A stretch of 32,000 nucleotides of DNA from Geotalea uraniireducens Rf4. GTDB lineage: Bacteria > Desulfobacterota > Desulfuromonadia > Geobacterales > Geobacteraceae. The DNA is taken from NCBI RefSeq assembly GCF_000016745.1, contig NC_009483.1:2340001-2372000 (forward strand), written 5' to 3'. The notes under the pieces were generated by a model, which ran no database searches, had not been told where the DNA came from, and saw only the letters and a list, made by a program, of their open reading frames with translations. Each line of letters opens with the position of its first letter. Within the stretch, counting starts at the first letter, position 1. A program made the position numbers and the translations under genes. Below are positions 9,620 through 24,019 of this stretch, one piece after another.

Positions 9620-10639
9620 TTATTTTCTCTGTCCTCTTTGTATGGACCTTCCGCCCCCACGGGAGGGCGGGCTTACCATTCCGCCGCCGCGTGGCGCCGG
9701 ACTGATCATCCTGCCGCCCCGGGGAGACGGGACGGACATGCCGGTGCCACGGGAGGGTGGTGCGGCCATTCTGCTCCCCCGTGATGTCGGTGCGGCCATC
9801 CTGCTGCCGGGGATTGTCCGTGCCCGAGGCCCGTTAAAAATCCTTCTATCGCTCCTTGGAACACCGGTAGAGATAAAACCCCTCGTACGGGAGACACCTA
9901 TACCCGCAAAGGTCCTTCCTCTGAACCTTGTCACGGGGTCGATGCGGAACACCCTGTGTCGCCTCACGTCGTTGAAGTGGTTCGAGACGAACGCCACTCT
10001 CCTGTCGATGATAACGGTCCTATGGAAATCGTTCAGGATGAAGAAGCCGGGAAACCAGAAACCCGTCCACCAGAACGGATAAGGAACCCAGGAATACAGG
10101 TAGTAGTAATCGGGGGGTGGGGCGTAGTACGTGACCACCGGCGGCCCTTGGTTGTTATAGTAGTTGTTTATGACCGTGGGCTCCGGGTAATTTTCAGCGC
10201 CTGGCGGTGTCTCTTCATAGGTTTTTCCGTCGGTGTGAGGTTTAACTGCCAGACTGAGTTCGGCATTGACGTCATTGAATCTTTTGAGTGCTTCCTCCTT
10301 GCCCATTGATATCTTTTTTGCATCCACGGCATCGTTTATCGATTTTTGCAATTCACCGATTATGTCCGGCGTAACAGGGTAATCGGCGATCCACCCGTTC
10401 CGCGGCGTAATGCCGGCTTCTCCCAGAATGGTCTCCGCCTCGGTCTGATCGTCGGTCGTTCCCAGTCCCAGTGCGAATACCAGCTTGACCGCCAGGGTGC
10501 CTTCCCTGATCAATGGTTGTCCTATCGGTGGCGGGCCCTGTTTTGTCTGTTCAGCTTGTGCATGGACCATTATTGGAAACAATATGAGAAGCAGACTGAC
10601 GACGACTAACTTAACCTTGAAAAGCGATCGTCTTTCCAT
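9620..10639 (-). CDS. Secreted protein of unknown function with an aromatic/Pro-rich centre and C-terminal degenerate 10-aa repeats (SRG.RM..P)
   Basis: 339 aa. N-terminal signal peptide (LLLILFPIMVHA-QA). AGGAG RBS. Central segment YYAPPPDYYYLYSWVPYPFWWTGFWFPGFF. Tail GSRMAAPTSRGSRMAAPPSRGTGMSVPSPRGGRMISPAPRGGGMVSPPSRGGG. Confidence 0.7.
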   Translation of the reverse strand: MERRSLFKVKLVVVSLLLILFPIMVHAQAEQTKQGPPPIGQPLIREGTLAVKLVFALGLGTTDDQTEAETILGEAGITPRNGWIADYPVTPDIIGELQKSINDAVDAKKISMGKEEALKRFNDVNAELSLAVKPHTDGKTYEETPPGAENYPEPTVINNYYNNQGPPVVTYYAPPPDYYYLYSWVPYPFWWTGFWFPGFFILNDFHRTVIIDRRVAFVSNHFNDVRRHRVFRIDPVTRFRGRTFAGIGVSRTRGFISTGVPRSDRRIFNGPRARTIPGSRMAAPTSRGSRMAAPPSRGTGMSVPSPRGGRMISPAPRGGGMVSPPSRGGGRSIQRGQRK

Positions 10640-10708
10640 GGCATTCTCCTTTCTTTCTTGGATAATTGGGGTTTCCTGATGGAAACTATCCGGAAAAATC
10701 GGTTAATC

Positions 10709-10724
10709 GGCAAACTGTGGACCA
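10709..10724 (-). promoter_or_regulatory. Candidate sigma-54 promoter (TGGTCC-N5-TTGC) facing the 9620-10639 gene
   Basis: The minus strand reads TGGTCCACAGTTTGCC. GG and GC have the canonical -24/-12 spacing. It lies about 70 nt upstream of the ATG at 10639. Confidence 0.45.
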
Positions 10725-10919
10725 TTAGAACCAACTGCCGGCTAAGGTCTGTTCTTCAAAATTGCTGCGAAGCTCGGCATGGCCCCTTATTCCGCGTGTT
10801 ACGTTCCTAAGGATAAATTATACCGTTTTTTGTCTTTTCCGCACACGTTCAAACCAGAGCGGCGGCACAAATGCAAAATTCGATGATTCACGCCAGGCAG
10901 GATACTTATCCGTAAGTTG

Positions 10920-10956
10920 GTGCAAAGATCTTCACGTGAAGTGCAATGTTTTGCAC
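10920..10956. promoter_or_regulatory. Candidate enhancer (UAS): weak site GTGCAAAGATCTTCAC plus strong palindrome GTGCAATGTTTTGCAC, centres 21 bp apart
   Basis: The strong site is 14/16 identical to the palindrome at 13702-13717 and has the same weak-plus-strong architecture. It lies in the divergent region between the 9620-10639 gene and the kinase/EBP operon. Confidence 0.5.
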
Positions 10957-11062
10957 CACCAAGGTGCCGCAACGTACCTTGTAGTGATGTAACTATTTGT
11001 AATAACACGAAAAATGAATATTCAGTTATCGGCATGCAATATGATATAGTATCGTTAAAACC

Positions 11063-12331
11063 ATGAGTTTTCAGGTGATTATGCTGAAGAAAATATTAGT
11101 TGTATTCGGTTTTGGATTATCGCTGTTTCTTCTCTGGTTTGCCGTGAGCAATTACCGGGCAGCCGGTCCCATTGCCGAAGAAAATCTCCGTGGCCTCGCA
11201 GTATCCTTGGCTGCAGCGATCGAGAATACTACCAGACAAGACCCTTCATTCAAGTCCTTGACCGGGTTTCACCCTTCCGACGTTGCTTTTTTTGCCATAA
11301 TCGATCGGAAGGGAACCATTCGCTTCCATTCGAACTCCGACCTCATCGGGAGTTCCACGGACAATCGCGATGTTCTGGCGGTCATGCAGAACAAAGTAAT
11401 ATCCGAATCGAGAGTGGTGCTTGGTACCGGAGAAAAAGCGTACCTATTCGACATTCCTCTCGATATTCACGGGGAGGTGTTTGCCCTTCGGCTTACGCTG
11501 CACACTTATAAGGCCGATGCGGTGGTGAGACGGGCTCGTCTAAATTTTGCCTTGCTCCTGTCGCTCTTGGCCGTCGGGTGGTTTCTGGCCGTTATCATCT
11601 ACCGGTTTGCCAAACGGGAAGAGCGGCACCAGATGGAGATGGCCCATCGGGAGAGCCTGGCCAGGCTCGGAGAAATGGGCGCCATGCTCGCCCATGAGAT
11701 ACGCAATCCCCTGGCGGGGATAAAAGGGTATGCCCAGGTTATCGAGAAAAGACCGGCTGAAGAACGAAACCGCAAGTTTGCTCAAAGCATCGTCAACGAG
11801 GTCCTGCGGCTGGAAAACCTGGTGAACGAACTTCTTGCATATGTGAGAAACGAAAGTACATCCATGAACCTGATCGATAGCGGTGGACTCATTTCCCATG
11901 CCGTTTCTCTGATTCGTCAGGAGGCTGAGCAGCTTCATGTGGCGGTCAGCATCGAATGTCCAGAAAATCTGCCCGTCCTAGGAAACTCGGACCGACTGGT
12001 TCAGGTACTGCTCAATCTTTTTAAAAACGCTCTCCAGGCAATGCCCGACGGCGGCAGTTTGCGCATTTCAGCCGGTATCGCCGGTTCAGCCGTTAGCATA
12101 ACCGTTGCCGATTCGGGAGCCGGCATCAGCCAGGAGGACATGGCGAGGATCTTCGAGCCGTTTTTCACTACCAAAGCACGGGGAACCGGTCTGGGTCTTG
12201 CCCTCTGCAAAAAGATAATCGGCGAGCACAACGGGACGATCAGCGTATCGAGCAGAGTCGGTCAAGGAACTTCAGTATCGATTACCCTTCCTTTGCAAAA
12301 AGGAAATATACCTGGCGGGAGCAGCTTATGA
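11063..12331 (+). CDS. Membrane sensor histidine kinase (two TM segments flanking a periplasmic domain, HisKA, HATPase_c), partner of the downstream sigma-54 activator
   Basis: 422 aa. TM1 [18 protein letters not shown] and TM2 [18 protein letters not shown]-box AHEIRNPL. G-boxes DSGAGI and GTGLGLALC. Its stop overlaps the next start (ATGA). An alternative start is ATG 11081. Confidence 0.88.
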
Positions 12332-13671
12332 CGGGACGTATACTTATTGTTGAAGACGATGAGACATTCAGGAGCTTTTTACGGACGATCCTGGAGGACG
12401 TCGGGCATGAGGTTCAGGAAGCCGGCGACGGCCTCAAGGGATTGCGTTTGCTGCGACGGGAAAACTTCGACCTGGTGATTTCAGACCTGAAGATGCCGGG
12501 TAAAAGCGGGCTTGAGCTGTTTCGCGAAACGAGACAGGACTCAAGCCCCCCGCAGTTTATCTTTCTGACGGCATTCGGGAAGGTGGAAGAGGCCGTTTCC
12601 GCAATCAAGGAAGGAGCCGTGGATTTCCTGACCAAGCCCCTTTCTGATCCCGACACCCTGCTTGTCCTGGTTGATAAGGTAATTGCATCGCAGGGCCGAG
12701 CACGAGACTATCTATCTCTCAAGGAAGTTGAGGCTGCGGGCCTGCCGCCGGAGGATTTGATTTTCGCCGGGGCGGCCATGAGAGACATACGGAAGATGGT
12801 CCATGAAGTTGCCGCGACCACTGCCAGCGTTCTCATTTACGGTGAGAGCGGCACCGGCAAGGAGTTGGTTGCCCGAACCATTCATTTGCTGAGTCCCAGA
12901 CGTACGGCTGCTTTCGTTCCCTTGAACTGTGCGGCGATTCCTGAGAATCTACTGGAAAGCGAACTTTTTGGTCATGAAAAGGGCGCCTTTACAGGCGCCA
13001 TTCAGGCGCGGCACGGTAAATTCGAGCTGGCCAGGGGAGGGACGATTTTTCTGGATGAAATCGGCGAGATGCCGCTTTCCTTGCAGGTCAAGTTGTTGAG
13101 GGTCTTGCAGGAGCGGGTTTTTGAGCGAGTGGGTGGCGCCAGGGAAATCAAGGCTGATGTGCGGGTTATCGCAGCCACGAACCGCAATCTTCAGGAAGAG
13201 GTGTCGGAACGGAGGTTTCGTGAGGACCTTTACTACCGTCTGAACGTTTTTCCGCTCAGTCTGCCGCCATTGCGGGAGCGTAACGATGCCGTTCATCTGC
13301 TGGCCGATTACTTTCTTCGCCGTTTCAGCCGACAGGTCGGCAAGAAACTCACGGGGATTGACGATGGGGCCTTTAATGCGATGAAAAGTTATGACTGGCC
13401 GGGCAATATTCGCGAGTTGCAGAACGTCATGGAGCGTGCGGTTATCCTGGCGCATGATGTGGTCAGATATAATAATCTGCCGGATCAGATGCTTGCAAAG
13501 TCCGCGTCAACTGCCCGCGGGGGCAAGGATGTCCTGAAATCCGTGGAACGGGAGATGATCATCAAAGCCTTGAACAAGCATGGCGGAAATCGCCGCCTGG
13601 CTGCCGAGGAGCTGGGATTCTCACGCAGGACCTTGCAGTACAAGCTGAAAGAGTTTGGCTTGCTGGATTAA
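12328..13671 (+). CDS. Sigma-54-dependent response regulator (REC, AAA+ and Fis-type HTH; NtrC family)
   Basis: 447 aa. Receiver domain ILIVEDDE...DLVISDLKMPG. Walker A GESGTGKE. The sigma-54 contact loop GAFTGA is present. C-terminal HTH NRRLAAEELGFSRRTLQYKLKEFGL. Confidence 0.93.
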   Translation: MTGRILIVEDDETFRSFLRTILEDVGHEVQEAGDGLKGLRLLRRENFDLVISDLKMPGKSGLELFRETRQDSSPPQFIFLTAFGKVEEAVSAIKEGAVDFLTKPLSDPDTLLVLVDKVIASQGRARDYLSLKEVEAAGLPPEDLIFAGAAMRDIRKMVHEVAATTASVLIYGESGTGKELVARTIHLLSPRRTAAFVPLNCAAIPENLLESELFGHEKGAFTGAIQARHGKFELARGGTIFLDEIGEMPLSLQVKLLRVLQERVFERVGGAREIKADVRVIAATNRNLQEEVSERRFREDLYYRLNVFPLSLPPLRERNDAVHLLADYFLRRFSRQVGKKLTGIDDGAFNAMKSYDWPGNIRELQNVMERAVILAHDVVRYNNLPDQMLAKSASTARGGKDVLKSVEREMIIKALNKHGGNRRLAAEELGFSRRTLQYKLKEFGLLD

Positions 13672-13680
13672 ATGTATCAG

Positions 13681-13718
13681 GTGCAAATCATTGCGTTATC
13701 CGTGCAATGAATTGCACG
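13681..13718. promoter_or_regulatory. Candidate enhancer (UAS): weak site GTGCAAATCATTGCGT plus palindrome CGTGCAAT-GA-ATTGCACG, centres 21 bp apart
   Basis: 8+8 perfect inverted repeat at 13701-13718, read directly from the sequence. It lies about 80 bp upstream of the TGGCACG element at 13792. Confidence 0.55.
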
Positions 13719-13791
13719 AATTTTTACTGAAAATTGGCATTACAAACTTGTAAACGATGCTAAAACAGATAGTTGTGTGGTGTGTGGTTTT

Positions 13792-13807
13792 TGGCACGAA
13801 CTGTGGA
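13792..13807 (+). promoter_or_regulatory. Candidate sigma-54 promoter (TGGCACG-N4-GTGG)
   Basis: TGGCACGAACTGTGGA. The -24 element is perfect. The -12 element is GTGG instead of TTGC, so the conserved C is missing. Spacing is correct. It lies about 45 nt upstream of the ATG at 13853. Confidence 0.4.
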
Positions 13808-13852
13808 ATTCCTTCTGACAGCAAGTAAATCATATCGGGGTATTTTTGTGTG

Positions 13853-14389
13853 ATGGGAAAAAGTCGCTTTTCCTTAATTATAGTGTCTGTCGTCCTTTTG
13901 CATTGCCTTTCAAACGGCAGCGCCTTTGCCGGTTTCGGTTTCGGTGGCTATGACGGCGGGGCGAGCGGTCTGGACTTCAACAAGGGGTATGATGTCAACA
14001 CGGTGGTAACGGTCTCGGGTCGTGTGACATCGCTCCCGCATGCCGGAGAACAGGACCATCTTATCGTCGAGGTCAGCGCCGGCAGTGAAATCGTCAACAT
14101 CAGTCTAGGCCCGAAATCGTTCTGGGAGAAAAAGGATCTAACGCTCCATTTGAACGACGACATCTCCGCCAAGGGATCAAAGGCACAGGGCAAGGACGGT
14201 AAAACCTACCTGATGGCCCAGAAGCTCACTAACAAGACTACCGGTGCCCAGGCGCTGTTAAGGGGGGATAGAGGTGCGCCTGCCTGGTCAGGGAGAACTG
14301 CAAACGGCTCCATGTCCAATCGTCCTGGCGGCGGGATGTTCAGGGGGGGCGGGATGATGCGGGGCGGCGGCGGAATGATGCGCCATTGA
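13853..14389 (+). CDS. Small periplasmic protein with a probable OB-fold-like core and a Gly/Met/Arg tail
   Basis: Signal peptide LLHCLSNGSAFA. Core with VSGRV..., LGPKSFW and LLRGDRGAPAWSGR. This pattern resembles, from memory, the small periplasmic MamS/MamX-like or BOF-type proteins. Tail is RPGGGMFRGGGMMRGGGGMMRH. I prefer the ATG at 13853 over the GTG at 13850. Confidence 0.7.
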   Translation: MGKSRFSLIIVSVVLLHCLSNGSAFAGFGFGGYDGGASGLDFNKGYDVNTVVTVSGRVTSLPHAGEQDHLIVEVSAGSEIVNISLGPKSFWEKKDLTLHLNDDISAKGSKAQGKDGKTYLMAQKLTNKTTGAQALLRGDRGAPAWSGRTANGSMSNRPGGGMFRGGGMMRGGGGMMRH

Positions 14390-14444
14390 CATTGATCGTA
14401 TCACTCTGGTTATCGTCTAAATGCGTTACAATGGAGAGGAGAGC

Positions 14445-15326
14445 GTGAAACATAACCGTTGTTCGGAAAAGTTTATAGCCCTGCTGGTGGTCATGACCGT
14501 TTTGCTGATACCGTCCCGGCTTTTTGCTGAAGAGCCATCATACTCCACCAGCCTCGGTTTTGAGTTCACTACCGGCAAATACGGGACAGGAATTAAAACC
14601 GACGCCATCTTCATGCCGTTCACCGTTGCCGTTTATCCGACGGAGCGGCTCGATTTTTCGCTGCAGATACCCTATGTCTACCAGAGCAGCAGCGCAGTAG
14701 TTGCGGGCGAATTCAGGGGGATGCAGCCGCAATCCATGGGGATGGGCTCGCAGTCGGTCTTGGCCGCCATGGGTAGCATGGGCAGCGGCACCGGCGGGCC
14801 GGGCCCGAGAACTACGGCATCGGCGGCCAATGTCGATAAATCCCAGAACGGACTCGGCGACATCACATTCAGGGCAGGCTACATCGTGGTTCCAGAGGGA
14901 GATTATCTGCCGGGCATCCGTCCCAACTTCTTTGTTAAATTTCCCACCGCCGACAAGAACAAATTTCTCGGGACCGGCGCCTTTGACGGAGGTCTTGCCG
15001 TGGAACTTTTCAAGTGGTTTGGTTATTGGCTCACCATTGGGGAGTTGGGGTATGCAGTCCAGGGCAAATCGTCGGTGCTGGCCGTTAAAAATTACCTCTA
15101 TTACAACGCCGGGGTCGGTTACCAGATCGGCGAACGGCTGCGGCCGATGCTCATGCTCAAAGGGAGCACCCCTCCCGTGGAGGGCGCTTCAGCCCAGCTG
15201 GAGGCGCGATTGAGGGTCAAGTACCAGATTACCGAACATACCGGCATAGACGGTTACGTCTCAAAGGGGATCAATACGTCCAGTCCCGATTACGGCACCG
15301 GTCTGGCGTTCTGTCTCGATTTCTGA
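14445..15326 (+). CDS. Outer-membrane beta-barrel protein (MetA-pathway/phenol-degradation-like transporter family)
   Basis: GTG at 14445 follows GGAGAGGAG directly and is in frame with the ORF-track start at 14421. Signal peptide ends ...SRLFA-EEP. The NGLGDITFRAGY motif is typical of this barrel family. Alternating hydrophobic strands. C-terminal aromatic residue (..FCLDF). Confidence 0.72.
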   Translation: MKHNRCSEKFIALLVVMTVLLIPSRLFAEEPSYSTSLGFEFTTGKYGTGIKTDAIFMPFTVAVYPTERLDFSLQIPYVYQSSSAVVAGEFRGMQPQSMGMGSQSVLAAMGSMGSGTGGPGPRTTASAANVDKSQNGLGDITFRAGYIVVPEGDYLPGIRPNFFVKFPTADKNKFLGTGAFDGGLAVELFKWFGYWLTIGELGYAVQGKSSVLAVKNYLYYNAGVGYQIGERLRPMLMLKGSTPPVEGASAQLEARLRVKYQITEHTGIDGYVSKGINTSSPDYGTGLAFCLDF

Positions 15327-15348
15327 TCGGGGGCGTTAAACGTAGACA

Positions 15349-15542
15349 CAGTAGTGTCCGTAAGAAAATTACACTGACTCACCAGCACATTGCACCCTCC
15401 CCCAGCCCCTCCTTTAGGCCCTTTGGGTCCATCAAGGGAGGGGAGCTTTAAAGTCCCCTCGCCCCTTGTGGACCCAAATTGCGGGCCTAAAGGAGAGGGC
15501 TAGGGTGAGGGGAAGTGCTGACGGAAACCGACACACTAACAG
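15349..15542. mobile_element. Degenerate MITE-like element of the CAG..TGTCCG family enclosing a roughly 138-nt imperfect palindrome (15383-15520)
   Basis: Left end CAGTAGTGTCCGTAAG resembles the right end of the 31050-31268 element (CAGTACTGTCCGGTTAG). The reverse complement of the right end is CTGTTAGTGTGTCGGTTTCC. The interior is a nested GC-rich inverted repeat (GCACCCTCCCCCAGCCCCTCCTTTAGGCCC ... GGGCCTAAAGGAGAGGGCTAGGGTGAGGGG). No intact target-site duplication. Confidence 0.45.
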
Positions 15543-15563
15543 TTAAAATGAAAGGAGTAATCC

Positions 15564-16454
15564 ATGAACAGGAAAATTATCGCAGCAGCAGTCGTGACAG
15601 CAGCATTGACAGGAGCACTTGCGGGATGCGGAGGAAGCGGCACGACCTCTGCGCCAGTATCCGTGAGCGGGACCGTGGCCGACGGTTATCTGGTGGGGGC
15701 CGAGGTCTTCCTCGACAAAAACAATAACTACCAGTGGGACGAAGGTGAGCCGAAGACCATGACCGGGCCTGGAGGAACGTACACGCTGACCATGACGGCG
15801 GGCGACATGGGAAAATACCCGGTCGTGGTCCGTGCCATAGCCGGAAGCACGGTGGATGAAGACACCGGACAGACGGTGCCGAACGATTACGTCATGTCCG
15901 CGCCTCCGGCTGCCGGCGGATTTGTCAGTCCCATGTCGACCCTGGTCAGGGAAAAAATGGAATCGAATCCGGGGATGACCATGGCGCAGGCGATGATACA
16001 GTTGAGGAACCAGCTCAATCTCCCGGCAGGCATGGACATGCTTGCCGACTATGTGGCGGGCTCCGGCTACGGCCCATACCAGGGTCAGTACCAGTCCATG
16101 CACCAGGTTGCCCGGCAGATGGCTGGGCTGATGGCGGACCAGTCCTCGCTCGTCTTGAACGGCAGCGTGGTCAACAAGGGGCGTTATCGGGGGATGATGG
16201 GACAGCTCAACCAGAACCTGCCGCAGATCGCAAACAACGCCTTTCAGGGGATGGGTATGGAAAGCACCTTCATGACCGACATGCGGAGCCGGATGCGGAC
16301 GATGCTTGAATCCATGTCGGCGGTCAACGGTTTCGGCAACTACTCGGCAATGTTCCGTAACATGACCAGTCACCGGTTTTTCTGGAATTACTCAGGCGGT
16401 CGCATGCAACCGGGCAGCGGCATGATGGGCGGTGGTACGAGAGGCATGATGTAA
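15564..16454 (+). CDS. Methionine-rich lipoprotein of unknown function
   Basis: Lipobox LAG-C. GGAG RBS. By my count 31 Met in 296 aa, concentrated in the C-terminal 180 aa. It ends GGRMQPGSGMMGGGTRGMM. Confidence 0.75.
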   Translation: MNRKIIAAAVVTAALTGALAGCGGSGTTSAPVSVSGTVADGYLVGAEVFLDKNNNYQWDEGEPKTMTGPGGTYTLTMTAGDMGKYPVVVRAIAGSTVDEDTGQTVPNDYVMSAPPAAGGFVSPMSTLVREKMESNPGMTMAQAMIQLRNQLNLPAGMDMLADYVAGSGYGPYQGQYQSMHQVARQMAGLMADQSSLVLNGSVVNKGRYRGMMGQLNQNLPQIANNAFQGMGMESTFMTDMRSRMRTMLESMSAVNGFGNYSAMFRNMTSHRFFWNYSGGRMQPGSGMMGGGTRGMM

Positions 16455-16529
16455 CCCGACTCTGCCGCAGCAGGAATGTGTTGATGCGAAAATGTGACGA
16501 TCCTGTTGCTGGCCCGCACAAAAATTGTA

Positions 16530-16559
16530 TTGACATCAGTCGCCGATTTTAGCTATGCT
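16530..16559 (+). promoter_or_regulatory. Sigma-70-like promoter (TTGACA, 18-nt spacer, TATGCT) for the riboswitch-controlled transcript
   Basis: Read directly from the sequence. It lies about 50 nt upstream of the first aptamer. Confidence 0.5.
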
Positions 16560-16607
16560 TCGTCACACGCACGAGCAATCAACTCGTTGCACAATCAGCA
16601 ACAGCTT

Positions 16608-16690
16608 GATAGACGATAATACTTAACCATCCGCGAGGGTGGGGCGGAAAGCCTAAAGGGTCTCCATGAGATAGCCGGGTTGCCGAAATA
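16608..16690 (+). promoter_or_regulatory. GEMM-I class cyclic-dinucleotide riboswitch aptamer, copy 1
   Basis: CGAUAAUACUUAACC, then hairpin CCAUCC-GCGA-GGGUGG with a GNRA loop, then GGCGGAAAGCC, then GGGUCUC...AUAGCCGGGUUGCCGAA. This matches the conserved core of c-di-GMP-I/GEMM-I as I remember it (ACGCAAAGCC ... GGGUUACCGA in Vc2). Confidence 0.8.
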
Positions 16691-16720
16691 TCATACGATA
16701 TTCGGCGACCCGGCTTTTTT
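16674..16720 (+). terminator. Intrinsic terminator forming the expression platform of riboswitch copy 1
   Basis: GCCGGGTTGCCGAAATATC / GATATTCGGCGACCCGGC stem followed by TTTTTT. The 5' arm is the 3' strand of the aptamer, so the two folds are mutually exclusive. Confidence 0.8.
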
Positions 16721-16833
16721 GTGGTCAAAATTGGATAAAGGGGGGTGATAAAGCCGTAAGATGTGACGCGCCTGCGAGGGCGTAAGGTTATGTCGAGTTG
16801 TGAATTACTGTTACTCGGTAATAGTCCTTTAGT

Positions 16834-16916
16834 GGTACACGATAATACTAAACCATCCGTGAGGGTGGGGCGGAAAGCCTATAGGGTCTCAAGTCAGACA
16901 GCCGGGTTGCCGAAAT
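16834..16916 (+). promoter_or_regulatory. GEMM-I class cyclic-dinucleotide riboswitch aptamer, copy 2
   Basis: CGAUAAUACUAAACC, then CCAUCC-GUGA-GGGUGG, then GGCGGAAAGCC, then GGGUCUC...ACAGCCGGGUUGCCGAA. It starts 226 nt after copy 1 and is nearly identical in all conserved positions. Confidence 0.8.
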
Positions 16917-16945
16917 ATCACGAGATATTCGGCAACCCGGTTTTT
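16901..16945 (+). terminator. Intrinsic terminator forming the expression platform of riboswitch copy 2
   Basis: GCCGGGTTGCCGAAATATC / GATATTCGGCAACCCGG stem with one bulged A, followed by TTTTT. It shares its 5' arm with the aptamer. Confidence 0.8.
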
Positions 16946-17087
16946 ATTTGCCCATTTACCGGATGTGGCCGAAAAAAGTAACTCGTGAACAAGGTTCGGA
17001 TCACCCCATGACGGGCAGTGGGATTGAGCCGGAAGGACAACAAAAATTGCTGTGCCGTCTGGCGCAGCAAGGAGCAAAGGAGAAACA

Positions 17088-19139
17088 ATGAGAGAACAGA
17101 TTAAAAGAACGTTCGCCGGCATCACCGTACTCTGTCTTGTTGCCGTCGGTCTTATGCTGACCGGCTGCGGCAGCAGCGGCGGAGGTCTTTCATCCCAGGT
17201 CGTGAGTGGCGTTGCTGCGGTCGGCGCTCCACTTGCCGGGCAGGTAAACCTTAAGGACGCCTCTAACCCTCCACAGGAAAAGTCGACCGTTATCGGTAAT
17301 GACGGTACGTTTGCCTTCGATGTCACGGGCATGAAAGGCCCGTTCATCCTGCAGGCGTCAGGGCGCGCCAACGGAACGAATTACGCGCTTCATTCCTTTG
17401 CCGGCGGAACGGGCACAGCCAACGTCAACCCGCTCTCAAATGCGGCGGTAGCCAGTGCTGCAGGGGTTGACGACCCGTCACAGGTCTTCGCGAATCCCGA
17501 CCCGGTCACGCTCCAGAAAATCGAGTCCAATCTCCAGACAGCTGTCGCCACTATCCTGTCCAAGCTCCACCCGCTCCTGAAGCAGTACAGCGCAGACAAC
17601 TCCGATCCGATCAAGGGGCACTACACCGTTGACCACACCGGTCTCGACGGCATGCTGGACAATGTGAAAATGACCCTATCCAACGGGGTTCTTACGATAG
17701 TGAATGCGAAAACCGGCGCAGTCATTTTCAGCGGCAAGATCTCCGACATCAATAACTGGAATTTTTCGGACGACGATAATAACATTCCCGCCCCGCCTGC
17801 CGTGCCCGCCGCTCCAGCCGGCTTGACCGCCACCGGCGCTGCCGGCCAGATGACCCTTTCCTGGAACGCCGTCAGCAACGCGACCTCGTACAATGTCTAC
17901 TACTCGACCACTGGCGGTGTCTCTGCCGCCAATGGGACAAAGATCGCCGGGGCCACCAGTCCTTATGTCCAGAGCGGCCTTACCGCAGGAACCACCTATT
18001 ACTACATCGTTACGGCAGTGAACAGCGCCGGCGAAAGCGCTGCCTCGGCCCAGGTTTCGGCGACCACCAATGCGACGCCGACACCGACGCCGACTCTCCC
18101 TGCTGCACCGACCGGAGTAATGGCCACAGGCGGCACCAACCAGGTGACCCTCTCCTGGAGCGCCGTCAGCAATGCTGCCTCGTACAACATTTACTGGTCG
18201 ACCAAGACAGGCGTCACGACGAGCAACGGGACAAAGATCAGCGGTGCCATGAGTCCTGCGGTTCAGGCGGGGCTTGCTGCCGGCACGACCTATTACTACA
18301 TCGTTACGGCAGTGAACAGCGCAGGCGAGAGCACGCCTTCCGTCCAGGTTGCGGCGACCACCGTCACTCCGACTCCCGCTCCGACCGTGCCGGCTGCCCC
18401 GTCCGGCGTGACCGCCACCGGCGGCGCCAAGCAGGTGACGCTGTCCTGGCCGGCAGTATCCGGCGCAACCTCCTATAATGTCTACTGGTCTACCGCTTCC
18501 GGCGTAACGACCGCGAACGGCACGAGAATCGCCGGGGCCACCAGCCCTTATGTTCATACCGGTCTTTCCGCAGGGACCAGCTACTATTACATAGTCACGG
18601 CTGTAAACGGCGCGGGCGAGAGTGCTCCATCAACTCAGGCGACCGCAACCACCAATGCCCCACTTCCGGCCGTTCCTGCTGCACCGACCGGTGTGACCGC
18701 CACAGGCGGCGCCAATCAGGTGTCTCTCTCCTGGTCGGCGGTCTCCGGCGCGACATCGTATAACGTTTACTGGTCTACGACTTCAGGGGTTACGACCGCT
18801 TCCGGGACAAAAATCGCCGGGGCCACCAGTCCCTACGTCCAGACCGGGCTTGCCGCCGGCACCGCCTACTACTACATCGTAACGGCGGTGAACAGCGCCG
18901 GTGAGAGCGCCGCGTCGGCAAAGACCACAGCGACTACCGCCGCCCCTGCAATCGACGGTGCAGCGCTTTATTCACAGTACTGCGCCGGGTGTCACGGAGC
19001 CCTGGCATCGTCCAACAAGAGGAAAACGACCGCTTCCAAGATCCAGTCGGGGATCAGCGGCAATGTCGGCGGAATGGGATATCTTTCCTCCCTCTCGGCG
19101 GCACAAATTCAGGCCATTGCTACGGCTTTGAATTTCTAG
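17088..19139 (+). CDS. Lipoprotein with an N-terminal beta-rich region, four tandem fibronectin-type-III repeats and a C-terminal monoheme cytochrome c domain
   Basis: ATG at 17088 follows AAGGAG.AAAGGAGAA; the track start at 17052 is less likely. Lipobox LTG-C. Four repeats carry the LSW.AVS.A.SYN.Y.S ... Y.V.GL.AGT.YYY.VTAVN.AGES pattern. CAGCH heme motif at 18981-18995, with a downstream GGMGYL candidate Met ligand. Confidence 0.85.
   Translation: MREQIKRTFAGITVLCLVAVGLMLTGCGSSGGGLSSQVVSGVAAVGAPLAGQVNLKDASNPPQEKSTVIGNDGTFAFDVTGMKGPFILQASGRANGTNYALHSFAGGTGTANVNPLSNAAVASAAGVDDPSQVFANPDPVTLQKIESNLQTAVATILSKLHPLLKQYSADNSDPIKGHYTVDHTGLDGMLDNVKMTLSNGVLTIVNAKTGAVIFSGKISDINNWNFSDDDNNIPAPPAVPAAPAGLTATGAAGQMTLSWNAVSNATSYNVYYSTTGGVSAANGTKIAGATSPYVQSGLTAGTTYYYIVTAVNSAGESAASAQVSATTNATPTPTPTLPAAPTGVMATGGTNQVTLSWSAVSNAASYNIYWSTKTGVTTSNGTKISGAMSPAVQAGLAAGTTYYYIVTAVNSAGESTPSVQVAATTVTPTPAPTVPAAPSGVTATGGAKQVTLSWPAVSGATSYNVYWSTASGVTTANGTRIAGATSPYVHTGLSAGTSYYYIVTAVNGAGESAPSTQATATTNAPLPAVPAAPTGVTATGGANQVSLSWSAVSGATSYNVYWSTTSGVTTASGTKIAGATSPYVQTGLAAGTAYYYIVTAVNSAGESAASAKTTATTAAPAIDGAALYSQYCAGCHGALASSNKRKTTASKIQSGISGNVGGMGYLSSLSAAQIQAIATALNF
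17806..18940 (+). repeat. Four tandem FN3-coding repeats, periods 294, 291 and 285 bp
   Basis: The YYY codon triplets start at 17997, 18291, 18582 and 18867. Repeats 1 and 2 share an identical 32-mer, TATTACTACATCGTTACGGCAGTGAACAGCGC. Confidence 0.9.
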
Positions 19140-22537: not shown

Positions 22538-23398
22538 CTAACTACTTAACTTAACGATCAAATCTCCAATTTTTGCATGGAGTTCTTCCAGATTGTTTTT
22601 CATTTGCTCCCGCTGTTTGCTTTTCAGAATTTCTACGTCAACAGTGACAATCCTCTGGGCAAAGGACTTAACGAAACTTACTCCTATTCTTTTTTTGCCA
22701 CTTGCCCCCGGCCGATTGATTTTCCTTAGCTGCGCTCTCGGCAATTTCTCCTTCTTATAGCCGTTATAGGCAGTTATCATCTCATCGGCAGTTGGCTGTC
22801 GGGCAATCTCAACGAGAATGCTCTTTGCCATATGGGGATCGCGCCGGCACTCCTCTTTGATTGTCTCCGGCAATTTTGTTAATGAGATGGTTTCACTAAC
22901 CGTTGTTTTGGATTTTCCCATGATCGCGCTCACATCATCAAGCGTGTACCCATTTCTCTCTTTAAGACTGCTTATGGCTTCTGCCTCTTCGATCGCTGTC
23001 AGATCACTTCGTTGCAGGTTCTCTATCAGAGCAATTTCAGCCGGGTCGCCATCCGTGAAAACCACGGGAATCTTTTTCAGCCCGGCTTTCCTTGCGGCAA
23101 GAAGTCGCCGCTGCCCCGCTACGAGCAGGTTTGAACCGTCAGTATCCACCTGGACAATGACCGGTTGCAAGACCCCGTGTTTCCTGATGGATAAGCATAA
23201 TTCTTCGAGACGTTCTTCATTGATGTACCGGCGTGGTTGGGAGTCCGAGATCTGGAGAGCTTCAACATCGAGTTCACTATTTTTCCGCTGTTTGCCCACT
23301 TTTGTATTTTTAACAGGGGATGCTTCTTCCGCAGTTAAGAATCCTGTGTCAAACATCGAATATTGTTCATGTTCTTTGTCGTTATTTTTACCAGACAT
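22538..23398 (-). CDS. ParB/Spo0J-family DNA-binding protein (ParB N-terminal domain plus HTH). It is an orphan with no ParA partner in the window.
   Basis: 286 aa. Motifs: ISDSQPRRYINEE.LEEL..SIRKHGVLQPVIV, then LVAGQRRLLAARKAGL (the GxRR arginine patch), then ALIENLQR. The gene is visibly more AT-rich than its neighbours. Confidence 0.8.
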   Translation of the reverse strand: MSGKNNDKEHEQYSMFDTGFLTAEEASPVKNTKVGKQRKNSELDVEALQISDSQPRRYINEERLEELCLSIRKHGVLQPVIVQVDTDGSNLLVAGQRRLLAARKAGLKKIPVVFTDGDPAEIALIENLQRSDLTAIEEAEAISSLKERNGYTLDDVSAIMGKSKTTVSETISLTKLPETIKEECRRDPHMAKSILVEIARQPTADEMITAYNGYKKEKLPRAQLRKINRPGASGKKRIGVSFVKSFAQRIVTVDVEILKSKQREQMKNNLEELHAKIGDLIVKLSS

Positions 23399-23680
23399 CG
23401 GTTTCCTCCCGGAGGTTTTCTGTCCATTGGCGTATATTTTCTGGCATAGAATTTAACATTTTCCCAAAACAGATGACTGGTGATTATGGCGAAATATATT
23501 ATAAAGTCAATTATAACGGATAGATATATTGCAATTTATTTTTGTGGGGTAGTTGACAATTTTGTAGACCTCATAAAATGGTGTAAAAGAAATTGCGCAC
23601 AGACTTGAACAAACTATGCTTTGAGGGGTTTTTTGAAGGATGTTGAACAAAAACGATTAAATCGCATAACGGTTCGATAT

Positions 23681-23716
23681 CAAAAAGAAAAAGGGCCAGG
23701 TCTGTTGACCTGGCCC
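23681..23716 (-). terminator. Intrinsic terminator downstream of tRNA-Val
   Basis: On the minus strand: GGGCCAGGTC-aaca-GACCTGGCCC followed by TTTTTCTTTTT. Confidence 0.8.
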
Positions 23717-23727
23717 TGTATGTTTTA

Positions 23728-23802
23728 TGGTGGGCGATGCTGGGATCGAACCAGCGACTTCTACCGTGTGAAGGTAGCACTCTCCCGCTGAGTTAATCGC
23801 CC
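23728..23802 (-). tRNA. tRNA-Val (anticodon CAC), CCA encoded
   Basis: Hand-folded cloverleaf. Acceptor stem GGGCGAT/ATCGCCC. D stem ACTC/GAGT. Anticodon stem CTACC/GGTAG with loop TTCACAC. T stem GCTGG/CCAGC with loop TTCGATC. 75 nt. Confidence 0.95.
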
Positions 23803-23814
23803 ATGTTGTTGCAT

Positions 23815-23843
23815 TTAATAACAGAACCGTGCATCTCTGTCAA
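23815..23843 (-). promoter_or_regulatory. Sigma-70-like promoter for tRNA-Val (TTGACA, 17-nt spacer, TATTAA)
   Basis: Read on the minus strand. The -10 element ends about 12 nt before the mature tRNA 5' end. Confidence 0.65.
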
Positions 23844-23931
23844 GGGGAGATTCAGAGCATCCGCGATAATCCAGATGCCTCTGCACAGTTTTATTCAAAA
23901 TAAAAAAATGTTATAAAGTACCGAATTCAAC

Positions 23932-23960
23932 TTGACACTGAATGGTCTGAGTTGATATAT
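23932..23960 (+). promoter_or_regulatory. Sigma-70-like promoter (TTGACA, 17-nt spacer, ATATAT) for the crotonase relic and B12 cluster
   Basis: Read directly from the sequence, about 60 nt upstream of the relic ATG at 24020. Confidence 0.45.
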
Positions 23961-24019
23961 TTCGTCGCGCTGCAGGGTTTTTTAGCCTGCTTGAAACATG
24001 ACAAAATCAGGAGAACTTC

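Follow-up and report, generated by a model that had tools for sequence, protein, structure and literature searches.

A conserved sigma-54-controlled, methionine-rich envelope operon in Geotalea uraniireducens Rf4 and its relatives

The stretch of DNA analyzed here, referred to as the window, comprises 32,000 nucleotides of the Geotalea uraniireducens Rf4 genome (assembly GCF_000016745.1, contig NC_009483.1, positions 2,340,001 to 2,372,000 of the forward strand), and coordinates are positions within the window unless a related locus is named. The unit of interest is formed by the genes of a histidine kinase (11063-12331), a sigma-54 activator (12328-13671), a secreted protein with a methionine (Met)-rich tail (B), an outer-membrane beta-barrel (C) and a Met-rich lipoprotein (D). 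We state with high confidence that these genes constitute a conserved sigma-54-controlled, Met-rich envelope operon. Its proposed function, held with moderate confidence on the strength of sequence comparison, is that of a probable periplasmic Cu(I)/Ag(I) buffering and outer-membrane transfer module.

Related loci were collected by a profile search with B of species-representative genomes, which returned 72 loci that included Geobacter, Geomonas, Oryzomonas and Citrifermentans together with many metagenome-assembled genomes. Open reading frames were called in these loci and compared with the proteins of the window; 59 loci form a main clade and 13 a distant clade. The regulator gene lies directly 5' of B in 55 of the 57 main-clade loci that could be assessed and in 11 of 12 distant-clade loci, and the kinase gene is found upstream of B in 51/53 and 11/12 loci, respectively. 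The barrel gene lies downstream of B in 53 of 56 main-clade and 10 of 12 distant-clade loci. In 38 of 50 main-clade loci the gene after C is D, or 42 of 50 when a Met-rich substitute is counted along with D itself, whereas none of nine distant-clade loci has D in this place. The full module is also carried by a cultured strain with a complete genome, Geotalea daltonii FRC-32 (CP001390.1, 921222-940115). On the 3' side of D there follow a sigma-70-like promoter and two cyclic di-GMP (c-di-GMP)-I riboswitches and then the next gene, and because these elements separate D from that gene, the operon was taken to end with D.

An earlier reading of the window from its sequence only (the sequence-only reading) had proposed an as yet uncharacterised module of the envelope, controlled by a sigma-54 system dedicated to it, in which three proteins with similar tails, namely A (9620-10639), B and D, were grouped around the barrel. 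The conserved order of kinase, regulator, B, C and, in most main-clade loci, D bears out the proposal of such a module. The same reading had named drift of the tails and lack of co-conservation as observations that would speak against it; for B, C and D the tails are kept and the genes are co-conserved. The grouping of the three tailed proteins stood only in part, with B and D belonging with the barrel and the regulators, and A falling outside. Altogether, the finding is more extensive than the sequence-only reading: A drops out, and the kinase, the regulator, the promoter and activator sites, the Met stripes in the helices of D, a Met-rich loop of the barrel and a lost peptide gene come in.

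Methionine-rich products of the operon

B (13850-14389, + strand, with its ATG at 13853) is a secreted protein with an oligonucleotide/oligosaccharide-binding (OB) fold and a disordered Gly/Met/Arg C-terminal tail, which ends in GGGMFRGGGMMRGGGGMMRH as the sequence-only reading had described. The search for homologues yielded 258 proteins, all Geobacter-like and 164-192 amino acids (aa) long. Amongst the 120 of these that were listed, 104 end in MM followed by zero to two basic residues, with a tail consensus of ...GGGMMRGGGGMMR[RH], and the last 30 residues consist of 20% Met and 37% Gly. The B tail is a conserved motif, and more than chance. In the AlphaFold model, confidence is limited to residues 50-136, the OB fold, and residues 147-179 are disordered. 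Each of the top 50 Foldseek matches was to a generic OB domain from a lysyl-tRNA synthetase, and this generic likeness probably explains the label "DNA-binding protein" in the NCBI records of the B family, an annotation that is wrong for clearly secreted proteins and needs to be corrected. A profile search of the PDB with B found no match, CusF included, and an NCBIfam scan gave nothing usable. Precomputed assignments place each of the 120 listed homologues, and also the orthologue of G. daltonii, in the Pfam family PF26390 (MamS_MamX), and the Pfam scan of B itself was empty. Identification of B as MamS was rejected, since the protein scored 14.6 bits on the MamS model NF040991 against an equivalog cut-off of 200 and has no magnetosome context.

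C (14421-15326, + strand, with a likely start at 14445) is an outer-membrane beta-barrel of the Phenol_MetA_deg/COG4313 family with a C-terminal Phe. The MetA/phenol-degradation-type barrel that the sequence-only reading placed between B and D was confirmed by a score of 39.9 bits on the Pfam model Phenol_MetA_deg (cut-off 22, E = 6.4e-10), and the precomputed assignment of the orthologue in G. daltonii is to this family as well. A PDB sequence search with C matched no chain, and the Pfam scan gave no CopB-family match. After the third predicted strand, at about residues 97-135, C carries a Met/Gly-rich loop of 35-45 residues. This loop holds 2-8 (usually 3-8) Met in the main clade and 0-1 in the distant clade. 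A nested palindromic insert of about 125 nucleotides (nt), resembling repetitive extragenic palindromes or miniature inverted-repeat transposable elements, lies between C and D (15390-15515), where it is present as a single copy in the window; in other loci the reading frame of D abuts or overlaps that of C.

D (15564-16454, + strand) is a lipoprotein with the lipobox LAGC. Its beta-sandwich is followed by a helical domain with Met stripes and then by a Gly/Met tail, which ends in GGRMQPGSGMMGGGTRGMM. Both the tail and the count of 31 Met in 296 aa given by the sequence-only reading were confirmed; this amounts to 10.5% Met, compared with 2.0-2.4% in two kinases, the regulator and A. The lipobox Cys22 is invariant across 31 aligned homologues, and the Gly at position +2 suggests, by the rule established for E. 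coli, that D would be sorted to the outer membrane. All 311 D homologues are Geobacterales-type lipoproteins; the 120 that were listed contain 5-14% Met, 86 of them end in MM with zero to two basic residues (the GGMM[RK] type), and their last 25 residues consist of 17% Met. As with B, the D tail is a conserved motif, and more than chance.

The structural model of D (predicted local distance difference test score 84, predicted template modelling score 0.80) consists of a beta-sandwich at residues 31-113, an all-helical domain at 123-264 and a disordered tail. Foldseek found nothing significant for this model in the PDB (best E = 0.046), and Pfam and NCBIfam scans of D gave nothing usable. The helical domain holds 20 of the 30 non-initiator Met, many of them invariant or nearly so, with M186, M190 and M211 invariant among the aligned homologues. 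Their spacing of i/i+4/i+7 (179/186/190; 237/240/244/247; 124/132; 140/144) places them on one predicted helix face. A D profile gathered 7187 relatives that share the N-terminal ~200 residues. These are lipoproteins of an ordinary kind, with a median Met content of 1.5%, and in this superfamily a Met-rich composition with a GGMM ending is confined to about twenty clusters at 50% identity. In four main-clade loci D is replaced by a non-orthologous lipoprotein with about 10% Met, or 25-33 Met each, and a GGMGMM(M) ending (L007 7235-8200, L014 11460-12413, L021 2175-3176 and L030 11427-12374). These replacements are 33-34% identical to the N-terminal part of a lipoprotein of the window with FN3 and cytochrome c domains, which is not Met-rich.

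The beta-sandwich of D contains, at residues 48-63 (window ~15705-15752), the motif ADGYLxGAxVFxDxNxNxxxDxGEP, which looks like a calcium-binding loop. Amongst the matches of the D profile are giant proteins, 1400-4200 aa long, in which the same motif is repeated 10-19 times.

The comparison of loci also pointed to a further product that the window lacks. The spacer between the regulator gene and B measures 400-770 bp in 39 of 55 main-clade loci and 178 bp in the window. Nearly all of the long spacers can be read as encoding a small protein, secreted and about 90-150 aa long, composed largely of Gly, Met, Ser, Thr and Gln, often with His, as in ...AFAFGGGMGGGQMGGSMGGGHQMSSGMQ..., and without a relevant Pfam match. 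When window positions 13810-13850 were compared with the closest locus (L001, 3100-3480), the promoter and the sequence just before B were the same and the peptide gene was cleanly missing, indicating that this gene is deleted in the present genome. No other copy was found in the window, and short spacers also occur in about a dozen other loci. The first gene of the distant clade encodes a different, Cys-containing Gly-rich peptide with the motif GPGDGTGN...RPLDGTGYGSP (L059-L072), and a looser version, ...CDGTGPKGQGTGNQRPMDGRG..., is encoded by the first gene of the G. daltonii locus (L074, 7238-7528). We take these Cys-containing peptides (L059-L072 and L074) to resemble DUF5320 proteins.

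The Met content of the non-homologous products varies together between the clades. Main-clade loci combine Met-rich B tails, Met-rich barrel loops and the presence of D with small peptides that are mostly Met-rich. The distant clade has a B tail of the Gly/Arg type (...RMGGGGRRR), a barrel loop nearly free of Met (0-1), no D and a different peptide. Because of this co-variation across non-homologous products, together with the fixed Met of D and its convergent replacement, the pattern points to selection for Met and not to compositional drift. The tails were also considered as a sorting signal of the PEP-CTERM kind, a candidate that was rejected as they have no hydrophobic segment.

Control by a sigma-54 two-component system

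The sensor histidine kinase (11063-12331, + strand) combines HisKA and HATPase_c domains with a periplasmic sensor domain at about residues 30-160, and its true start is likely the ATG at 11081, which follows AGGTGA. The best NCBIfam match is ZraS, with 246 bits against a cut-off of 479, and this match is confined to the cytoplasmic part; for the sensor domain, a PDB sequence search matched no solved structure. The gene that follows (12328-13671, + strand) encodes an NtrC-type sigma-54 enhancer-binding response regulator composed of a receiver (Response_reg, 96 bits), an AAA+ domain with the GAFTGA motif and a Fis-type helix-turn-helix (HTH_8, 58 bits). The presence of a sigma-54 system beside the tailed genes, already noticed in the sequence-only reading, is confirmed by the score of 247 bits on Sigma54_activat. 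On the NCBIfam model of ZraR the regulator scored 370 bits, with a cut-off of 760.

Upstream activator sites are predicted between the regulator gene and B (13681-13717, + strand), where the perfect palindrome GTGCAATGAATTGCAC (13702-13717) is preceded by a weaker version of it, GTGCAAATCATTGCG (13681-13695), the two starts being 21 bp apart. The palindrome, with the consensus GTGCAA-N4-TTGCAC, lies about 28 bp past the stop codon of the regulator in 55 of 67 loci, and the window contains two occurrences against 0.01 expected. The 16-bp palindrome is positioned 90 bp upstream of the -24 element of a sigma-54-type promoter, TTGGCACGAACTGTGGAAT (13791-13809, + strand); upstream activator sites of sigma-54 promoters are expected at distances of about 80-150 bp. 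The activator very probably binds the predicted GTGCAA-N4-TTGCAC sites.

The promoter of B has a canonical -24 element, and its -12 element reads TGG instead of the consensus TGC. A motif of the form TGGCAYG-N4-GTGGAAT was found about 118 bp past the regulator stop codon in 53 of 67 loci. Amongst these matches, which were selected by a regular expression, TGGCAYG is invariant, and T, G, G, A and a later T and G are invariant or nearly so. The T and G of the -12 element are kept across loci, and the usual C is replaced by G, T or A (TGG, TGT or TGA). A scan of the window with the canonical consensus TGGCACG-N4-TTGCW returned 13 matches against 16 expected, no better than chance, and the B promoter was recognized only through the comparison of loci. 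Loss of the -12 C could alter the tightness of promoter silencing, as published work on other promoters indicates. The same odd -12 element was observed at the promoter of a Cus pump on the Pelobacter propionicus plasmid pPRO1 (L073, 9077-9096), where the Cus pump operon is preceded and controlled by a paralogous sigma-54 system.

A second pair of activator-like sites precedes the kinase gene (10920-10956, + strand). It consists of GTGCAAAGATCTTCAC (10920-10935) and the perfect palindrome GTGCAATGTTTTGCAC (10941-10956), with starts 21 bp apart in the same two-site layout as at B. A sigma-54-like promoter candidate for the kinase and regulator genes, CGGCATGCAATATGATA (11030-11046, + strand), follows 89 bp past the palindrome, again with the spacing seen at B. 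The pair and CGGCATGCAATATGATA suggest that the system regulates its own synthesis in this genome. This palindrome and promoter were seen in the window alone among 62 loci and in none of the 61 others, and may represent either lineage-specific autoregulation or a chance resemblance.

Neighbouring genes, proposed function and competing explanations

Flanking open reading frames of the 72 loci were clustered, and genes related to metals were counted within a distance of 6 kb. The neighbour clusters included a CusA/CzcA-family RND pump (19 of 72 loci), a CusB-type adaptor with a heavy-metal-binding domain (17/72), a TolC-like outer-membrane factor (11/72), a copper-type P1B ATPase of the CopA type (7/72) and a Met/His-rich periplasmic protein with no family assigned (14/72). 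At least one of these five types lies within 6 kb in 35 of 72 loci, mostly on the same strand and directly upstream, and in a few of those 35 loci the only such neighbour is the Met/His-rich periplasmic protein without an assigned family. The identity of the other neighbours is supported by family models: the pump scored 1175 bits on TIGR00914 (CusA/CzcA) and is 47% identical to SilA, the adaptor carries CusB-type and heavy-metal-binding domains, and the ATPase passes the copper P1B model. In G. daltonii FRC-32 the module is divergent from an operon of a TolC-like factor, a CzcB-type adaptor and an RND pump.

Downstream of CusA genes in these loci (e.g., L031, L051 and L054, and L073 at 15368-18275), a group of small genes regularly occurs between the pump and the module. 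This set encodes a periplasmic protein of about 170 aa that is rich in Met/His and has no Pfam family, a lipoprotein with a GerMN domain and a cytochrome c'-like protein.

The composition of the tails bears on the identity of the metal. They are made of Met, Gly and Arg, contain no Cys or Asp/Glu, and have at most a C-terminal His; in terms of coordination chemistry, Met without Cys or acidic residues is a better match for Cu(I)/Ag(I) than for Zn, Cd or Co. The sequence-only reading had pointed to Cu(I)/Ag(I) binding from the Met-rich character of the proteins, and this suggestion is strengthened by the CusCBA and CopA genes found beside the module in many genomes, while we still infer the metal function itself.

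In the mechanism that we propose, the kinase would sense soft-metal stress in the periplasm, most likely from Cu(I) and perhaps from Ag(I). The activator, bound at GTGCAA-N4-TTGCAC, would then switch on the sigma-54 promoter ~90 bp downstream and thereby B, C and D, with the small secreted Met/Gly/His-rich peptide as the putative first product in most relatives. The induced proteins would bind metal in the periplasm through Met thioethers, and the metal would be passed towards or through the outer-membrane barrel. In this way the module may add to the work of the CusCBA pumps and CopA ATPases, which are often its neighbours.

Several observations weigh against a role in Cu(I)/Ag(I) handling or the evidence for it. 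Neither Cus nor CopA genes are present in the 32-kb window itself, and roughly half of the related loci have no metal-handling genes inside 6 kb. Loci from related genomes are non-independent samples, so the counts overstate the support. Several Arg residues stand beside Met in the tails, which is odd for a cation-binding site, and the promoter has no canonical -12 GC in the window or in the related loci. Additionally, searches of Pfam, NCBIfam and the PDB gave no sequence homology of B, C or D to CusF, PcoB/CopB or PcoE/SilE, and COG4313 barrels have been linked to the uptake of hydrophobic molecules and not to metals (PMC4493636).

A more far-reaching version of the proposal, which we put forward tentatively and consider doubtful, is that the module forms an unrecognised route for Cu(I) through the Gram-negative envelope, all of whose parts are unrelated to Cus, Pco and Sil and which leads from an OB carrier and D to a COG4313 barrel. 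Along such a route the Met-rich tail of B would act as a "fishing-line" and D would be a new fold with Met-striped helices, both handing the metal on, and the Met-rich loop of the barrel would serve as a selectivity filter. The common C-terminal GGMM could be a docking or hand-off element, with the dedicated sigma-54 sensor controlling the entire set.

An alternative that we regard as unlikely is that the products are envelope-stress chaperones similar to the ZraPSR system, which protect proteins and feed back on the kinase and are not metal carriers; the kinase and regulator would then react to stress of the envelope or from metals. ZraS is the best NCBIfam match of the kinase, and a sigma-54 two-component system beside a periplasmic protein is the arrangement expected. 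ZraP has a Gly/Met/His-rich C-terminus, and flexible Met surfaces bind unfolded chains, as in the M domain of SRP54; both features were counted in favor of chaperones. The scores, however, are far below the cut-offs (246 vs 479 bits for ZraS and 370 vs 760 bits for ZraR), and the ZraS match covers the cytoplasmic part only. No CpxP/Spy/ZraP-type protein was found among A, B, C and D in Pfam and NCBIfam scans, and chaperones leave the Met loop of the barrel and the nearby Cus and CopA genes unexplained.

The Met-rich proteins could instead be an oxidant sink, in which they would be sacrificial targets of hypochlorite or peroxide and be re-reduced, in the manner of MrpX in Azospira; this we consider quite unlikely. 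The Azospira system pairs the Met-rich peptide MrpX with a periplasmic methionine sulfoxide reductase (PMC4436054). It relies on small secreted Met-rich peptides and on Met-rich tails, and the small peptide of most related loci would fit that description. In the present loci, however, a motif scan found an MsrA-like motif in one of 72 and an MsrB-like motif in none (MsrP/YedY was not part of the scan), the operon has no reductase gene, and the neighbours are metal pumps and not redox repair genes. The barrel and the fixed Met stripes of the helices would be superfluous for a sink, and MrpX is under an extracytoplasmic function sigma factor, not sigma-54.

Improbable as well is a role in export or surface display, in which the barrel would move unfolded low-complexity polypeptides, either the small peptide or the tails of B and D, to the cell surface, in the manner of the barrel FapF with its amyloid subunits, and give rise to a Met-rich surface layer or matrix. 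Papers on FapF cite a structural kinship with COG4313 barrels (PMC5557850, PMC6173800), and in most genomes the operon opens with the gene of a secreted, disordered peptide. The Gly/Met C-terminal ending common to three non-homologous proteins would be a possible recognition tag, but the small peptide does not carry GGMM, and the window has lost its gene and kept the rest. Furthermore, no Fap-like chaperone or protease genes are present.

Uptake of a hydrophobic or haem-like compound through the barrel, with the compound bound by the Met-rich proteins, is very unlikely. Methionine can ligate haem iron, and Met-rich surfaces bind hydrophobic ligands. The role proposed in print for COG4313 barrels is the uptake of hydrophobic molecules (PMC4493636), yet no catabolic, haem or transporter genes recur as neighbours, where metal efflux genes recur instead, and periplasmic two-component sensing fits a stress response better than nutrient uptake. 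Finally, that there is no shared function, the tails being low-complexity drift and the genes merely adjacent, holds for A, with its tail of varying length and sequence and its non-syntenic gene, and is scarcely credible for the unit, being refuted for B, C and D by the tails, the fixed Met, the clade co-variation, the replacement of D and the conserved order and promoter. The chaperone, oxidant-sink, export and uptake explanations are each less consistent with the neighbourhood data than Cu(I)/Ag(I) handling.

Protein A (9620-10639, - strand, 339 aa) consists of a signal peptide, a soluble N-terminal part, an aromatic/Pro-rich stretch, a basic region and an RGG/Pro repeat. The open reading frame and the tail are where the sequence-only reading had placed them; the protein ends in ...PRGGRMISPAPRGGGMVSPPSRGGGRSIQRGQRK and continues beyond the end quoted there as ...SRGGGRSIQRGQRK. 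A tail type common to A, B and D was not confirmed. The family of A has at least 3050 members in several phyla, and 120 homologues carry a P-x-(S/P)-R-G-G-R-x repeat of variable length that ends in RGERR or RGQRR. Their tails contain 3% Met, 17% Arg and 12% Pro, and because none of the 120 ends in MM, the methionines of A are lineage-specific. The 72 related loci contain no A homologue inside a distance of 10 kb from B, and no sigma-54-type promoter facing A was found when one was looked for. With a gene that is not syntenic, a tail family of a different kind and no such promoter, the assignment of A to the module had to be abandoned, and A is best treated as an unrelated neighbour. The Tyr/Trp/Pro-rich hydrophobic stretch, YYAPPPDYYYLYSWVPYPFWWTGFWFPGFF, is followed by a strongly basic region, and the tail would be cytoplasmic if this stretch spans the membrane. 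The Pfam scan assigned A to no family, which also led to the rejection of DUF3300, the UniRef name of one homologue, and NCBIfam gave nothing usable. One A homologue (L076, 3190-4215) starts 2 nt after an RND pump gene.

Beyond D, the sigma-70-like promoter (16530-16559) precedes both c-di-GMP-I (GEMM-I) aptamers, which are arranged in tandem at 16611-16687 and 16837-16914 (+ strand) and scored 40.3 and 47.6 bits against a gathering threshold of 35. A hairpin with a T run, read by eye and not in the list of the terminator scan, lies 3' of each aptamer. The gene that follows the riboswitches (17052-19139) encodes the lipoprotein mentioned above, in which four FN3 domains are combined with a cytochrome c domain at the C-terminus. 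Farther along, a ParB-like gene (22538-23398, - strand) and a tRNA gene (23731-23802, - strand) lie in a region (22538-24000) around which the G+C content falls to 0.43-0.48 from about 0.55, and which may be the edge of an island.

Significance and comparison with known systems

No description of the operon, of the GGMM tails or of the D family was found in the library that was searched. In anoxic sediments rich in metals, which Geobacter relatives dominate, copper occurs as Cu(I), its more toxic form, and the exit of Cu(I) from the periplasm by means other than Cus pumps is poorly understood. If the proposal is true, a conserved and regulated group of envelope proteins that are rich in Met and have no kinship with known copper proteins would represent a new solution, which includes a helical domain in D without a PDB match, and a COG4313 barrel would gain a new role. 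If the function is right, the module would be a new variety of periplasmic copper/silver defence. The regulon model, with a binding site, a promoter and target genes, is open to direct testing.

Sigma-54 two-component control of copper tolerance is already known from CorSR of Myxococcus xanthus (PMC3707914), in which a periplasm-sensing kinase and a sigma-54 enhancer-binding regulator likewise control a copper-tolerance cluster. The targets of CorSR, however, are classical copper genes encoding a multicopper oxidase and a P1B ATPase, and the likeness is one of architecture. The paralogous system ahead of the Cus pump on pPRO1 offers a further precedent for metal genes under such control. ZraPSR shares the periplasm-sensing kinase, the sigma-54 NtrC-type regulator and an adjacent periplasmic protein with a Gly/Met-rich C-terminus. 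It differs in its sensor domain, which is unrelated by sequence, and the tails of the present module are without the His and Cys expected for Zn.

C passes the Pfam model and ends in Phe like other outer-membrane barrels, which relates it to the Pput2725-type COG4313 channels (PMC4493636); neither the Met/Gly loop nor the operon partners are described for those channels, and the proposed substrates of the family are hydrophobic organics. B is comparable to the MamS/MamX and YgiW-type OB proteins through the PF26390 assignment of its homologues and the OB fold of its model, and MamS has itself been modelled as an OB fold on periplasmic YgiW (PMC3905215).

The closest parallels in proposed function are with the Cus, Pco and Sil systems. 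Cus of E. coli (cusRS/cusCFBA) likewise places a two-component system beside envelope proteins that bind metal through Met, including CusF, a small periplasmic Cu(I)/Ag(I) carrier of the beta-barrel/OB-like kind, and the divergent layout in G. daltonii resembles that of cusRS and cusCFBA. The module differs from Cus in that its regulator is a sigma-54 activator and not of the OmpR type, in that B has no detectable sequence similarity to CusF and holds its Met in a disordered tail, and in having its own barrel and lipoprotein and no RND pump. With Pco and Sil the likeness lies in the proposed roles, the peptide of related loci corresponding to the disordered Met/His sponge PcoE/SilE, the Met-rich barrel to PcoB, and the induction to that by a metal-sensing two-component system, whereas there is no homology and the peptide gene is absent from the window. 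In the proposed role, the module would be functionally analogous, and not homologous, to PcoE/SilE, CusF and PcoB.

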